A DNA stretch of 64,000 nucleotides, from contig CAWJMT010000004.1 in assembly GCA_963844035.1 (NCBI GenBank), positions 288,001-352,000 on the forward strand. The letters are read 5' to 3'. The position numbers and the translations under genes are program-made. This DNA is from an uncultured Gemmatimonadales bacterium (lineage in GTDB: Bacteria > Gemmatimonadota > Gemmatimonadetes > Gemmatimonadales > GWC2-71-9). The notes under the pieces are model-generated. The model was not told the DNA's origin. It saw nothing but the letters and a program-made list of their open reading frames with translations, and made no database searches. This document shows positions 2,774 through 51,870 of the stretch, in pieces (within the stretch, counting starts at the first letter, position 1; each line of letters begins with the position of its first letter).

Positions 2774-4453
2774 ATGTCAGAGCTGCGCAGCCGCACAATC
2801 ACCCAGGGCGTTCAACGCGCTCCCAACCGGGCCATGCTGCGGGCGGTGGGATTCGGCGACCGTGATTTCGACAAGCCGATCGTCGGCATCGCCAACGCCT
2901 ACAGCACGATCACTCCGTGCAACCTTGGGCTCGATGGTCTCACCCGGCGCGCCGAGGCGGCGATCAGGGCCGCCGGCGCCATGCCGCAGACATTCGGTAC
3001 GATCACCGTCAGCGACGGCATCTCCATGGGCACGGAAGGGATGAAGTACTCCCTCGTGTCGCGCGAGGTGATCGCCGACTCGATAGAGACCGCCTGCAGC
3101 GCGCAGTCCATGGACGGCGTCCTCACGATTGGTGGATGCGACAAGAACATGCCCGGTGCGATGATCGCGATCGCCCGCATGAACATCCCCGCCCTGTTCG
3201 TCTACGGCGGAACGATCAAGCCCGGTCACTTCGATGGGCGCGATCTCACCATCGTGAGCGTGTTCGAGGCGGTGGGAGAGTTCAGCGCCAAGAAGATCGA
3301 TGCCGCCGAGCTGCTGGAAGTCGAGCGCCGCGCTTGCCCGGGCGCCGGCTCGTGCGGTGGGATGTACACCGCGAATACGATGTCCTCGGTGTTCGAAGCG
3401 ATGGGGATGAGCCTCCCCTACTCGTCCACGATGGCCGCCGAAGACGACGAAAAGGGGGCCAGCGCCGTACGCTCGGCCCAGGTGTTGGTCGACGCGATCC
3501 GCCGCGACCTGCGCCCGCGCCAGATGCTGACCCGCCAGGCGTTCGAGAACGCCATCGCGGTGGCCCTGGCGATCGGCGGCTCGACCAACGCCGTACTGCA
3601 CCTGCTCGCCATCGCGCATGCGGCGCAGGTACCGCTCACACTCGATGACTTCGAAGCGATGCGGTCGCGAGTGCCGGTGCTGTGTGACCTGAAGCCCTCG
3701 GGGCGCTTCGTCGCAACCGACCTGCACCGGGCGGGGGGCATCCCGCAGGTGATGAAGATCCTGCTGGTGCATGGCGTGCTACACGGCGACGCGTTGTCCG
3801 TCACCGGGCAGACGATCGCTGAGGTGCTGCGCGACGTCCCAGTGGAGCCTCGCAAGGATCAAGAGGTGATTCGCCCCTGGGATCGGCCGCTCTACGCGCA
3901 GGGCCACCTCGCCATCCTGCGCGGCAATCTGGCCACGGAAGGGGCAGTAGCGAAGATCAGCGGGGTGAAGAAGCCCCGCGTGACAGGCCCCGCGCGCGTG
4001 TTCGACACCGAGGAGGCGTGTCTCGACGGGATCCTGGCCGGCCGCATCAAGGCGGGCGATGTGATCGTGATCCGCTACGAGGGACCCAAAGGCGGCCCCG
4101 GGATGCGGGAGATGCTGTCTCCCACGGCCGCGCTCATCGGCGCAGGCCTCGGCGACTCGGTCGGGCTGATTACGGACGGGCGGTTTTCAGGCGGGACATA
4201 CGGAATGGTGGTGGGCCACGTAGCGCCGGAAGCCGCGGTCGGGGGGACGCTGGCGCTGGTGGAAGAGGGCGACCCGATCACGATTGATGCCGAGCGCCGG
4301 CTGCTGCAGCTCGATGTACCGGAGGCGGAGATCCAGCGGCGTCGCGCCAAGTGGCGCCCGCCTGCTCCACGCTACACGACGGGAGTGTTGGCCAAGTACG
4401 CGAAGCTCGTGTCCAGCGCGAGCGTGGGTGCGGTAACCGACCTCAGCCTCTGA
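2774..4453 (+). CDS. ilvD: Dihydroxy-acid dehydratase
   Basis: [49 protein letters not shown]. Confidence 0.97.
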
Positions 4454-5533
4454 CCCCCTGAAGGGTCGAGCTTTTCACCAGCTCCGCGATTCGTTCACCC
4501 ATCTGTGTCGTTCCCAACACCGCGTCACCCGGGCCCCGCGATGTCCTTGGTCCTCGCACCTCCGTCGAGCGCCAGGCGGATGCAATCGTCAACCGCGTCG
4601 GCCGCCTCGGTCAGTTTGAGTCCGTAGCGCAGCAGCATCGCCGCCGAGGCGATCGCCCCGATGGGGTTCGCGATCCCCTGCCCCGCGATATTCGGGGCCG
4701 AGCCGTGGATCGGCTCGAAGAGTCCGGGGCCGTTCCCGAGTGAGGCCGACGGGAGCAAGCCGAGCGACCCGACCAGCACCGCGGCCTCGTCGCTCAAGAT
4801 GTCGCCGAACATGTTCTCGGTGAGCACCACGTCGAGCGTCGCCGGATCGGCGACGAGCCGCATCGCCGCGTAGTCCACGTACAGATGCTCGAGACGCACA
4901 TCGGGGTACTCGCGGCCCAGTCGCGTCACGGTCTCACGCCATAGCTGCGACACCTCGAGCACGTTGGCCTTGTCCACCGAGGTCACGAGCTTGCGCCGGC
5001 GCCGCGCCGATTCGAACGCCACCCGCGTCACCCGCTCGATCTCGCTCACCGAATACCTCAGGGTGTTCACCGCCTCGACCGCCGTCTTCCCCCGCGGCTC
5101 GCCGTAATAGAGGCCGCCGGTCAGCTCGCGCACGATCAGCAGGTCCACGCCCTTCAACCGCTCGGCGCGGAGCGGCGAGCGGTCGGCTAGACCCTGAGTG
5201 GATGGAAACGGGACGAAGGTTGGCGAACACGCCCAGGAGCGCCCGCAGGGCCAGGAGACCCGTCTCGGGCTTGAGCTCGCGCGGCGCCTGGTCGAGTGAG
5301 GGATCGCCCACGGCCCCGAGCAGGACCGCGTCCGCTTTGACGACCGCTGCGCGCGTCTCGGGTGGCAGCGGGCTCCCCACCGACGCAACCGCCGTGGCAC
5401 CGACGGGATAGTGCGTCATCGCGAGGCGGACCTCGAAGCGCTCCGCCACCGCTCGCAGGACCCGCTCCGCCTCGGCCGTCACCTCGGGACCGATGCCGTC
5501 GCCGCCGAGGACGGCGATGGTGAACTGCTTCAC
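4443..5533 (-). CDS. leuB: 3-isopropylmalate dehydrogenase (apparent frameshifts near 5195 and 4528)
   Basis: [46 protein letters not shown]; a shifted frame supplies the C-terminus [18 protein letters not shown]...*. Confidence 0.93.
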
Positions 5534-6120
5534 CGGCGACGCTCGAACGCCGCGATCAGCGGCTCGTCGAGCAGCGTCCGTCCGATCTCGTCGATCCCCC
5601 GGAGCAGCATCTCGCGGCGATAGGGCTCCAGCTCGAACCGCGTGCGGAATCCGTTCCCGTCCTCCACCTGCTGCTCCTGCAGGTCGATCGTGAGCGAGTA
5701 CCCGTTACTCGCGGCCTCACTGCGCCGCTGCAGGTCGTCGACTTCCTGCGGCTCCAGGCGGACCGGCAGGATGCCGTTCTGGCAACAGTTGGCGAAGAAG
5801 ATGTCGGCGAACGACGGCGCGACGACCGCGCGGAACCCGTAGTCGGCGAGCGCCCACGCGGCGTGCTCGCGCGACGAGCCACACCCGAAGTTGGCTCCCG
5901 CCACCAGGATGCTGGCCCCCTGGGCCGCCGGCCGGTTGAGCTCGAACTTCGGGTCGGGCGTCTTGCCGTCGCCCAAATAGCGCCAATCGTAGAACAGCGC
6001 CGGCCCCAGGCCGGTGCGCGAGAGCCCCTTCAGAAACTGCTTCGGGATGATCTGATCGGTGTCGACGTTGGCGCGGGGGAGTACCACTGCACGCCCAGTG
6101 TGACGGACAAACGGCTCCAT
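5530..6120 (-). CDS. leuD: 3-isopropylmalate dehydratase small subunit
   Basis: MEPF...[35 protein letters not shown]. Confidence 0.95.
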
Positions 6121-50299: not shown

Positions 50300-51753
50300 T
50301 CACACGTCGTAGTACAGGAAGAATTCGTACGGATGGGGACGGAGCGCGACGGGGTCGATCTCCTTCGCCCGCTTGTAGGCCAGCCACGTATCGATCAGGT
50401 CCTTCGTGAACACGCCGCCCTCGGTCAGGAACGCATTGTCCGCCTCGAGCGCTGCCAGCGACTCACCCAGCGAACCGGGGGTGTTCTTGATGTGCTTCCG
50501 CTCTTCCGGCTCGAGATCGTACAGATCCTTATCCAGCGGCTTGGGCGGCTCGATCTTGTTCTTCACGCCGTCCAGGCCGGCCATCAGCAGGGCGGCAAAC
50601 GTGAGGTACGGGTTGCTCGACGGATCGGGCGCCCGGAACTCGATGCGCTTGGCCTTGGGCGACTTGGAGTACATCGGGATGCGGCAGATCGCCGACGCGG
50701 TTGCGCGCCGAGTACATGAGGTTGATCGGCGCCTCGTAGCCCGGCACCAGCCGGCGGTAGCTGTTGGTGGTGGGAGCAGCGAACGCCAGCAGCGCCCCGG
50801 CGTGCTTGATCAGCCCGCCGATATAGTGGCGCGCCATGTCGGAAAGCATGGCGTACCCCTTTTCGTCGAAGAACAGCGGCTTGCCCTGGTTCCACAGGCT
50901 CATGTGCACGTGCATACCCGGAGCCGTTGTCGCCGTACATCGGCTTCGGCATGAACGTGGCCGTGTAGCCGTTCTGCTTGCAGACGTTCTTCACGATGTA
51001 CTTGTACATCATGATTTGGTCGCCCATGCGCGTGAGCGTGCCGAAACGCATGTCGATCTCGGTCTGGCCCGCCGTGCCGACTTCGTGGTGGTGCACTTCC
51101 ACCGGAATTCCGGCCCCGAGCATCGCGAGCATGATCTTGGAACGCAGATCCTGCTGCTTGTCGGTGGGCGGCACCGGGAAGTAACCCTCTTTGTGCCGCG
51201 GGCGATGCGCCAGGTTGGGCGTGCCGTCGTCCTGCCCTGAGTTCCAGATGCCTTCCTCGGAGTCGATGAAGTAGTAACCCGAGTGCGCGTTCTGATCGAA
51301 CCGCGCCGAATTGAAGATGTAGAACTCCGCCTCGGGGCCAAAGTAGACCGTGTCGGCAATCCCCGACTTCGTGAGAAATGCCTCGGCCTTCTGGGCCACG
51401 TAGCGTGGATCGCGCGAGTAGCGCTGTCCGGTGATCGGGTCCCCGATGTCACAGGTGAGCGACAGCGTCGGAATCTCGAGGCAGGGATCGACGAACGCGC
51501 TCGCCGGATCCGGGAACAGCAGCATGTCGCTCTCGTTGATCGCCTGGAAGCCCCGGATCGACGATCCGTCGAAACCAATCCCCTCAGCGAAGAGGGATTC
51601 GGTCATCTCGCTGACGGGAATCGAAAAGTGCTGCCAGGTCCCGGGCAGGTCGGTGAAGCGGACGTCGACGACCTGTACTCCGCTCTCCTTCGCGAGTTTG
51701 ATCGCGTCGGCCGGCGTGGCGCCCTTAGCGGTGGTCGCTGGTTTCGCGGTCAT
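50300..51753 (-). CDS. glnA: Glutamine synthetase type I-beta (frameshifts near 50915 and 50690)
   Basis: [50 protein letters not shown], adenylylation-site motif DLYDL. Confidence 0.93.
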
Positions 51754-51841
51754 ATGAGACAAATCCTCCGAGGCATCGGGTCACTCCAGGGTGGTCAGGG
51801 CTGCAACGGGCTCCACGACATCGGGCGGCCGACGGGGCGAG

Positions 51842-51870
51842 AAGCTATTCCTCGCCTTATGACCCGTCAA
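51842..51870 (-). promoter_or_regulatory. sigma70 promoter of the glnA-glnA2 pair
   Basis: TTGACG-N17-TAGCTT. Confidence 0.65.

Follow-up and report, generated by a model that had tools for sequence, protein, structure and literature searches.

A genus-conserved cluster of separately regulated amino-acid biosynthesis operons in Gemmatimonadales, with a single-lysine-codon leader before lysC that may act through Rho

The DNA considered here, referred to as the window, is a stretch of 64,000 nucleotides (nt) from an uncultured Gemmatimonadales bacterium of soil (G000:C4:288001-352000; genome 3.47 Mb, 84% complete). An earlier note on it had proposed that ilv/leu, thr, pro, lys/dap, cys, cimA and gln genes lie together within ~49 kb, and this is borne out by NCBIfam; the cluster is real and is a genus-level feature, best read as a genus-conserved set of operons, each of which is regulated separately. 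The best explanation as a whole, held with slightly better than even confidence, is that leuA, cimA and cysH have leader-peptide attenuators, that the thr operon has the relic of a SAM-II riboswitch, and that the lys operon has an upstream open reading frame (uORF) that controls Rho-dependent termination. The last of these elements, a conserved mini-gene with a single Lys codon before lysC, has apparently not been described before. The same note also proposed that the operons rely on ribosome-mediated sensing; this has good support in the case of leu, cimA and cys and is plausible in that of lys, but is wrong for thr and unsupported for gln. The parts of the lysC leader are as follows.

40100..40128, minus strand: lys operon promoter, sigma70-like, with the uORF ATG ~12 nt downstream
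39998..40087, minus strand: lysC leader uORF MPLDPRTSHPFRFADDARLARRKRACSLL, with C-terminus ...RRKRACSLL
40021-40019, minus strand: AAG, the single Lys codon of the lysC uORF, inside the invariant GCCGAAAGCGGG
39922..39997, minus strand: C/U-rich stretch past the uORF stop, then a GC hairpin (39952-39922) without a U tract; candidate Rho loading and pause region

The lysC leader set comprises 34 copies (36 loci, less four duplicates, plus three added, less one truncated) in 14 clusters, from six genera of one family and from metagenomes, the majority having been found by pattern. The general layout is a promoter, an ATG ~6-30 nt on, 9-24 poorly conserved C-rich codons and an invariant CGA-AAG-CGG, with the stop 7-10 codons further along; a C/U-rich stretch and a GC hairpin that has no U tract then lead up to lysC. 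The sequence GC-CGA-AAG-CGG-G is present in 34/34 copies, with CGA_AAG in the translated frame in all of them, and an in-frame upstream ATG is found in 33/34, compared with 1/34 and 0/34 for the other frames. Exactly one Lys is encoded in 32 of 33 peptides, at codon 23 in 20/33; the stop is TAG in 33/34 copies, 21-30 nt past the Lys codon, and the frame reading AAG is retained across many changes in uORF length. Because most copies had come from a pattern search, a set found via the LysC protein was also checked; 13 of these 18 genomes have the leader, with the exact 12-mer in frame in 13/13. Among metagenome matches (n = 62), CGA-AAG precedes lysC in 22/29 cases, vs 0/33 for CGG or AAA variants. 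The 12-mer has a single occurrence in this genome, and the element is found once per genome, always before lysC; a phylum-wide gapped pattern, which also missed G003 (spacing out of range), found the element in 0/175 genomes outside the family. We infer that the uORF is translated, and it probably senses lysine. The gapped pattern also has a match in G198 that does not lie before lysC.

The 12-nt core is conserved at the nucleotide level, i.e. synonymous sites are invariant, yet the first Arg varies to Ser or Gly. The pattern expected of an arrest peptide, conserved residues with free synonymous sites, was not seen, the N terminus of the uORF being unconserved and third positions in the core invariant. 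Nor does the leader resemble a classical attenuator: it has no run of cognate codons, and none of 17 folded copies has a terminator hairpin with a U tract. Searches of Rfam gave nothing meaningful in the window or in either divergent leader, the lysine riboswitch being unmatched even at E up to 10, and the 0 and -1 frames could not be told apart by codon-position entropy. The alignment is compatible with a 6-bp hairpin that places the Lys codon in its loop (94.8% paired). Another local hairpin, 73.8% paired and without covariation, failed, as did pairing of the 3' half of the 12-mer with the downstream hairpin, which was promising by eye and did not withstand swap and shuffle controls. Of the uORF and alternative RNA pairing that had been claimed for lysC, the uORF is real and conserved, and the pairing is unsupported. 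An RNA contig from a close strain spans 40088 through the leader into lysC. Full-text searches of the literature turned up no account of the present leaders, whether of this or of the classical type, in Gemmatimonadota and no lysine uORF before lysC, although the supplementary leader-gene lists of PMC4833913, and a comparative survey of attenuation from 2010 by the same group, could include leaders from Gemmatimonadota or for lysine.

In the proposed mechanism, when Lys-tRNA is scarce the ribosome would stall at AAG, aided by slow CGA in its P site, and the stalled and trailing ribosomes would cover the C-rich RNA, such that Rho could not load and RNA polymerase would proceed into lysC. When lysine is plentiful the ribosome would finish the uORF and depart, the small Lys-codon hairpin would refold, and Rho would load and terminate near the downstream GC hairpin. 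A rho gene is present in the genome. The C skew of the leader is at least at the 85th percentile of the genome background in 12/14 cluster representatives, and YC dimers are above the 90th percentile in 9/14; on the same measures the four terminator-type leaders reach only the 5th-70th percentile. CGA makes up 5.6% of Arg codons in this genome and, in the accessible text of PMC4046918, is slow in a Salmonella leader assay; it could lengthen a starvation pause at one AAG. The chance that Rho is the effector of the lysC uORF is judged to be about even.

Several observations weigh against this mechanism or limit the support for it. The C skew is modest and is not seen in L113 (1/14). One Lys codon makes a weak sensor, and three Arg codons flank the AAG; the 34 leader copies are kin, and 5 of the 18 LysC-found genomes lack the whole leader before the same operon. 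Rho loading alone gives no need for an invariant 12-mer, and since the stretch after the stop lies outside the footprint of a single stalled ribosome, the mechanism needs either queued ribosomes or involvement of the C-rich RNA further upstream. The openness of the -1 frame exceeds expectation (P ~0.02), which Rho does not explain, the Lys-codon hairpin has no covariation beyond that of shuffles (225/500), and the RNA contig cannot show the start, strand or level of the transcript.

Known uORF-dependent Rho attenuators include tnaC, speFL, mgtL, corL and cruR (PMC12360218; here and elsewhere cited for its accessible part), and Rho-type control has been predicted for actinobacterial cys leaders (PMC1262725, likewise in part). 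Like the former, the lysC leader has a uORF, no intrinsic terminator, and RNA rich in pyrimidines both within the uORF and beyond it; the proposed logic, in which stalling leads to expression, is shared by cruR and mgtL (PMC12360218). Unlike them, it has no conserved arrest peptide, a single cognate codon and an invariant 12-nt hairpin core, and the accessible entries for uORF-mediated Rho control in PMC12360218 hold no lysine case. In B. subtilis, the abrB leader, with AAG-AAA, is a recent case of AAG-sensitive uORF control, linked to tRNA modification rather than to lysine synthesis, according to the accessible part of PMC13733827.

A uORF with Lys codons and a terminator precede dapE-asd-lysC operons in 3/18 other relatives, none with the CGA-AAG core. 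These leaders, from the same family, resemble the lysC leader in that a uORF containing Lys codons lies upstream of a lysine operon; they differ in belonging to another type of operon (LysC 45-52% identical) and in having an intrinsic terminator. The three uORFs (L281, L285 and L287, in G011, G029 and G008) have 4, 1 and 3 Lys codons, respectively. In the relatives without the lysC leader (L263, L265, L274-L276, L074) the promoter lies ~40 nt from the lysC start; G248, of the same genus as G126 and G033, retains the leader.

Bacterial lysine synthesis is usually described as being under the control of the L-box riboswitch or of proteins, the L-box being the lysine riboswitch that regulates lysC. 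The leader in the window has the same regulated gene and, presumably, the same signal as the L-box; unlike the L-box it has no Rfam match, is read as translated and is invariant over just 12 nt. The E. coli lysC lysine riboswitch is listed in the accessible part of PMC12360218, with Rho acting downstream. If the proposal is correct, the lysC leader would add lysine to the signals of Rho-type uORF attenuators, with one codon, set in a constant 12-nt context, as the sensor and no terminator involved.

Three other explanations of the lysC leader have to be weighed. The nucleotide-level conservation of the core, with synonymous sites fixed while the first Arg becomes Ser or Gly, together with the high pairing of the small hairpin (94.8% of cells), would suit an RNA hairpin that binds a protein or ligand, or a uORF that senses arginine or translation speed, in either case with the Lys codon incidental; in speFL, arginine is sensed by way of consecutive Arg codons (PMC6386406, accessible part). 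The retention of the AAG-reading frame despite many length changes, the occurrence of the element once per genome and solely before lysC, and the lack of an Rfam match make this unlikely. Ribosomes are also known to shift to -1 at CGA_AAG, the invariant core here, in B. subtilis cdd and in IS1222, according to the accessible text of the review PMC5009743, and in the lysC uORF the same hexamer lies in the zero frame. A lysine-conditional -1 frameshift switch is therefore conceivable, in which tRNA-Lys(CUU) is uncharged and tRNA-Lys(UUU) re-pairs from AAG to AAA at CGA_AAG, the shifted ribosome bypassing the stop and reaching the lysC start, so coupling or protecting lysC expression. Both Lys tRNAs are present in the genome, and a further likeness to the cdd/IS1222 type is the reading of CGA by tRNA-Arg(ACG), no UCG tRNA having been found in this genome. 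The -1 frame is stop-free from the uORF to the lysC ribosome site in 0.73 of the 14 clusters, compared with 0.47 and 0.31 in the two other frames (frame permutation, P = 0.019; 0.013 before three copies were added); in the window, it closes 3 nt short of the lysC start. However, that test was post hoc, with start codons picked by eye and with a conserved GTAG motif that inflates +1 stops; in 5 of the 13 genomes found via the LysC protein a stop closes the -1 frame within 47-65 nt, lysC is not kept in a constant frame with respect to AAG and, unlike at the cdd/IS1222 sites, there is no conserved -1 product or fusion. PMC5009743, in its accessible part, also describes shifting at such hexamers as low-level and knows of no regulatory case of a hungry codon. 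Such a switch, which would be a natural hungry-codon frameshift for amino-acid control with no example known to that source, is considered distinctly unlikely.

The uORF might instead control lysC translation through an RNA switch in which a stalled ribosome frees the lysC ribosome-binding site. The GAGG ahead of lysC has a possible pairing partner in a CCCTCC-like stretch that lies 13-18 nt past the Lys codon, and a mechanism of this type has been shown for mycobacterial Cys small ORFs (sORFs; bioRxiv 10.1101/834739, accessible part). By contrast, in constrained folding of 31 copies, the mean accessibility of the ribosome site is 0.36 free vs 0.35 stalled, by which occlusion of the site was rejected, and no long-range partner shows covariation (own pairing -17.8 kcal/mol, swapped -17.5, in 17 copies); this explanation is accordingly regarded as quite improbable. 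Control of Rho termination by the lysC uORF remains the preferred reading.

The three leaders of classical type, and the thr leader discussed below, are located as follows.

12524..12778, minus strand: leu attenuator, with -35 at 12778, uORF 12688-12584, antiterminator arm 12618-12602 and terminator 12558-12524
47166..47354, minus strand: cimA attenuator, with -35 at 47354, uORF 47313-47230 and terminator 47201-47166
40198..40399, plus strand: cys attenuator, with -35 at 40198, leaderless-type uORF 40234-40335 and terminator 40356-40399
12844..12921, plus strand: thr leader, with promoter 12844-12873 and terminator-like hairpin plus U tract 12892-12921; aptamer missing

The two pairs of back-to-back leaders, leu|thr and lys|cys, are where the earlier note had placed them, and its Leu-rich, Ile-rich and Cys-rich uORFs (before leuA, cimA and cysH, respectively) each proved to have a terminator and a competing pairing. 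In each of the leuA, cimA and cysH leaders, a sigma70-like promoter is followed by a uORF that contains a run of cognate codons (8 Leu within 10 codons, 4 Ile within 6 codons and 5 Cys among the first 12 codons, respectively) and by an intrinsic terminator. A Leu-rich uORF is present at 18/18 leuA loci of the family with enough flank, vs 0/3 in another family; Cys-rich uORFs precede 6/6 cysH genes and Ile-containing uORFs (2-4 Ile codons) 6/8 cimA genes. By script, the leu terminator was found at 16/18 family loci and the cys terminator in 4/5 relatives. In constrained folding, the 5' arm of the terminator is predicted to be sequestered at 0.88-1.0 with a ribosome on the regulatory codons, vs 0.13-0.50 with the ribosome at the stop. 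As a check on chance, a genome-wide scan covered 104 strict promoters and 44 uORFs; it gave four uORFs rich in one amino-acid class with a terminator, three of which fall in the window. The fourth, outside the window at G000:C5:254476, is a Tyr/Phe/Trp leader (MPRTNYYFGFFWFG...) with a terminator, before a gene that we take to be DAHP-synthase-like, and is predicted to attenuate in response to all three aromatic amino acids. One result counts against switching in the cys leader: its full-length fold prefers the terminator in every ribosome state, so switching there rests on co-transcriptional folding. Overall, the folding and conservation results make it very probable that the leuA, cimA and cysH leaders are classical leader-peptide attenuators.

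Classical leader-peptide attenuators are those of the enterobacterial leu, ilv, thr, his, trp and phe operons. The leuA, cimA and cysH leaders, which are further members of this known class, likewise have runs of cognate codons, a GC hairpin with a U tract and an antiterminator that captures the 5' arm of the terminator; unlike known classical leaders they match no Rfam leader family. Actinobacterial trp and leuS leader attenuators are described in the accessible part of PMC1262725, which reports no intrinsic terminator found in actinobacterial cys leaders, whereas the Cys leader of the window has one. Mycobacteria have a 'ribulon' of leaderless poly-Cys sORFs, with sequestration of the ribosome site as output (bioRxiv 10.1101/834739, accessible part). 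As in that system, the Cys uORF of the window begins ~7 nt past the -10 box and several operons each have their own uORF; unlike it, the Cys leader has a predicted terminator, and the leaders sense different amino acids.

The thrB leader had also been thought to encode a peptide. This was rejected, in that the short ORF in question (12825-12875) overlaps the promoter and no uORF is kept in eight thrB leaders. The conserved parts are instead the promoter and, 15-45 nt on, the hairpin with its U tract, and between the same promoter and hairpin the genera g4, g28, g57 and g88 have a SAM-II aptamer (RF00521), which has no match anywhere in the window. The thr leader of the window shares promoter and terminator hairpin with the intact SAM-II riboswitches of thr operons and with a copy at C5:37732, and differs from the SAM-II riboswitch in having no aptamer; from these comparisons it is, with high confidence, a SAM-II riboswitch that lost its aptamer. 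Among 12 further thr operons, seven have SAM-II directly upstream, three retain the hairpin but have lost some or all of the aptamer, and two have another gene upstream. The aptamer is missing from the thr operon in 7/7 genus genomes, the hairpin also being gone in G006, and SAM-II was matched in 28/30 family genomes searched. This genome has intact SAM-II at C5:37732, upstream of a second thrC-like gene, and at C32:39069, upstream of a gene that resembles methionine synthase. The aptamer deletions before thr operons (L341, L342 and L345, in G073, G395 and G375, and L215, in G009) are partial or complete, with different end points, and the terminator is retained every time. The aptamer appears to have been lost several times before thr operons with the terminator remaining, and the thr operon of the window may be constitutive, throttled by a leftover leaky terminator. 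The cluster as a whole displays regulatory turnover, in that a SAM-II relic and an unusual uORF stand alongside three attenuators of classical type.

The genes of the cluster, identified by an NCBIfam scan of 69 ORFs hand-picked from 260, are arranged as follows.

2774..4453, plus strand: ilvD, dihydroxy-acid dehydratase (TIGR00110, above cut-off)
4462..12483, minus strand: leuA-ilvB-ilvN-ilvC-leuC-leuD-leuB operon
12939..17679, plus strand: thrB-thrA-thrC, with thrA and thrC frameshifted in the assembly
17689..18543, minus strand: proC, missing at this place in G004, G005 and G001
~19300..32800, no strand: variable insert of unrelated genes (TlpA, BNR protein, TonB receptors, SCO, CtaG-like, serine hydrolase, LytTR pair)
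32837..39905, minus strand: lysC-dapE fusion, dapB, dapA, dapD, dapC-like aminotransferase, asd
40441..44646, plus strand: cysH, cysG and sulfite reductase, frameshifted in the assembly
45578..47131, minus strand: cimA, citramalate synthase (TIGR00977, above cut-off)
48870..51750, minus strand: two tandem glnA, with no uORF leader seen upstream
52035..52122, no strand: two GTGCA-N5-TGCAC-like palindromes upstream of glnA, a candidate operator

From 2774 to ~51750, NCBIfam backs ilvD, leuBDC, ilvC/N/B, leuA, thrB/A/C, proC, asd, the dapC-like aminotransferase, dapD/A/B, the lysC-dapE fusion, cysH, cysG, sulfite reductase, cimA and both glnA. The gene order ilv-leu | thr - asd-dap-lysC | cys - cimA - gln recurs in 6/6 other genus genomes, complete on one contig in G004 (36.6 kb) and G006 and matching as far as the contigs extend in G003, G005, G002 and G001; the check across relatives that had been proposed hence shows that the clustering is not a misassembly. 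The ~13.5-kb insert between the thr and lys blocks differs among genus genomes. It includes a LytTR response regulator and kinase, such that the statement that no transcription-factor gene is adjacent holds for the conserved core and not for the insert. In sister genera (G009, G033, G274, G109) the clusters are partial and rearranged, and elsewhere in the family lysC and thrA are found on separate contigs, or 485 kb apart in the single-contig G057.

That all 49 kb are one horizontally acquired, self-regulating prototrophy island is very unlikely. In its favour, leuA-type genes are present in just 23/61 genomes of the order, the window-type sulfite reductase in 8/61 (7/7 of the genus, 1/54 others), and the LysC type of the window, at a strict cut-off, in 7/78 genera. 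Against it stand the flat GC across the window, the lack of mobility genes among the ORFs scanned, the partial, rearranged clusters of the sister genera, and orthologues of leuA (67-77% identical) and thrA (56-74%) family-wide at separate places. Because the leu and thr genes have these close orthologues, most of the cluster looks gathered by rearrangement; our reading is of a stepwise gathering of mainly inherited operons, with the cys module probably acquired. No close LysC was found in five Acidobacteriota genomes. The term 'prototrophy island', as used in the earlier note, was also overstated, since hisD, trpB, argH, aroA, lysA (for the final reaction of lysine synthesis), metH-like and cysK-like genes are on other contigs, i.e. 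key biosynthetic steps are encoded outside the window, and 13.5 kb are an unrelated insert. An ORF that is presumably ArgR-like lies beside argG-argH. In this 84%-complete genome proA was not found; the cys operon (40441-44646) has no sulfate adenylyltransferase or cysteine synthase gene, the rest of the genome not having been searched for sat/cysDN.

For the gln genes, the GTGCA-N5-TGCAC-like pattern has four matches in the genome, two of them upstream of glnA, compared with one match for a reversed control. As the pattern was derived from these same sites, the result is a lead only; it suggests that the palindromes may be the operator of a protein (nitrogen) regulator, which would speak against an island that is wholly ribosome-sensed. 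In relatives (L127, L137, L140) palindromes lie before glnA, and between cimA and the porin gene.

Many genes of the window are split by frameshifts. Because relatives are without these breaks, and because RNA contigs from a close strain are one base shorter at three of them (8824, 17278 and 40998), they are most likely assembly errors; the RNA data are assembled contigs, runs X2-X4 having yielded short pieces only. In the leu operon, the frameshifts in ilvN and leuB and the single reading frame shared by leuC and leuD are probably assembly indels, and an apparent IlvN-IlvC fusion (7575-9182) was rejected as the artefact of a one-base indel, being absent in five same-genus relatives. A different relative, G009 (L135-L136), has an in-frame IlvN-IlvC fusion with a single ACT. 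A tRNA-Asp prediction at 7294, inside leuC, was taken as spurious. The LeuA of the window is 89-91% identical to that of Gemmatimonadales metagenome-assembled genomes. At 37482-39905 an aspartokinase is joined in frame to a DapE-like M20 peptidase, a frame that most relatives in the genus also keep open; the same domains recur in an Atlas cluster of 83 members. A DUF347 membrane protein (44820-45594) after the sulfite reductase and a BBP2-type porin (47464-48663) beside cimA keep their positions genus-wide, and a methanethiol-oxidase-like beta-propeller (39-932, sub-cut-off) adjoins ilvD in several genus members. Further along the window, 62411-63520 encodes a protein like the streptogramin B lyase (Vgb) families, also sub-cut-off.

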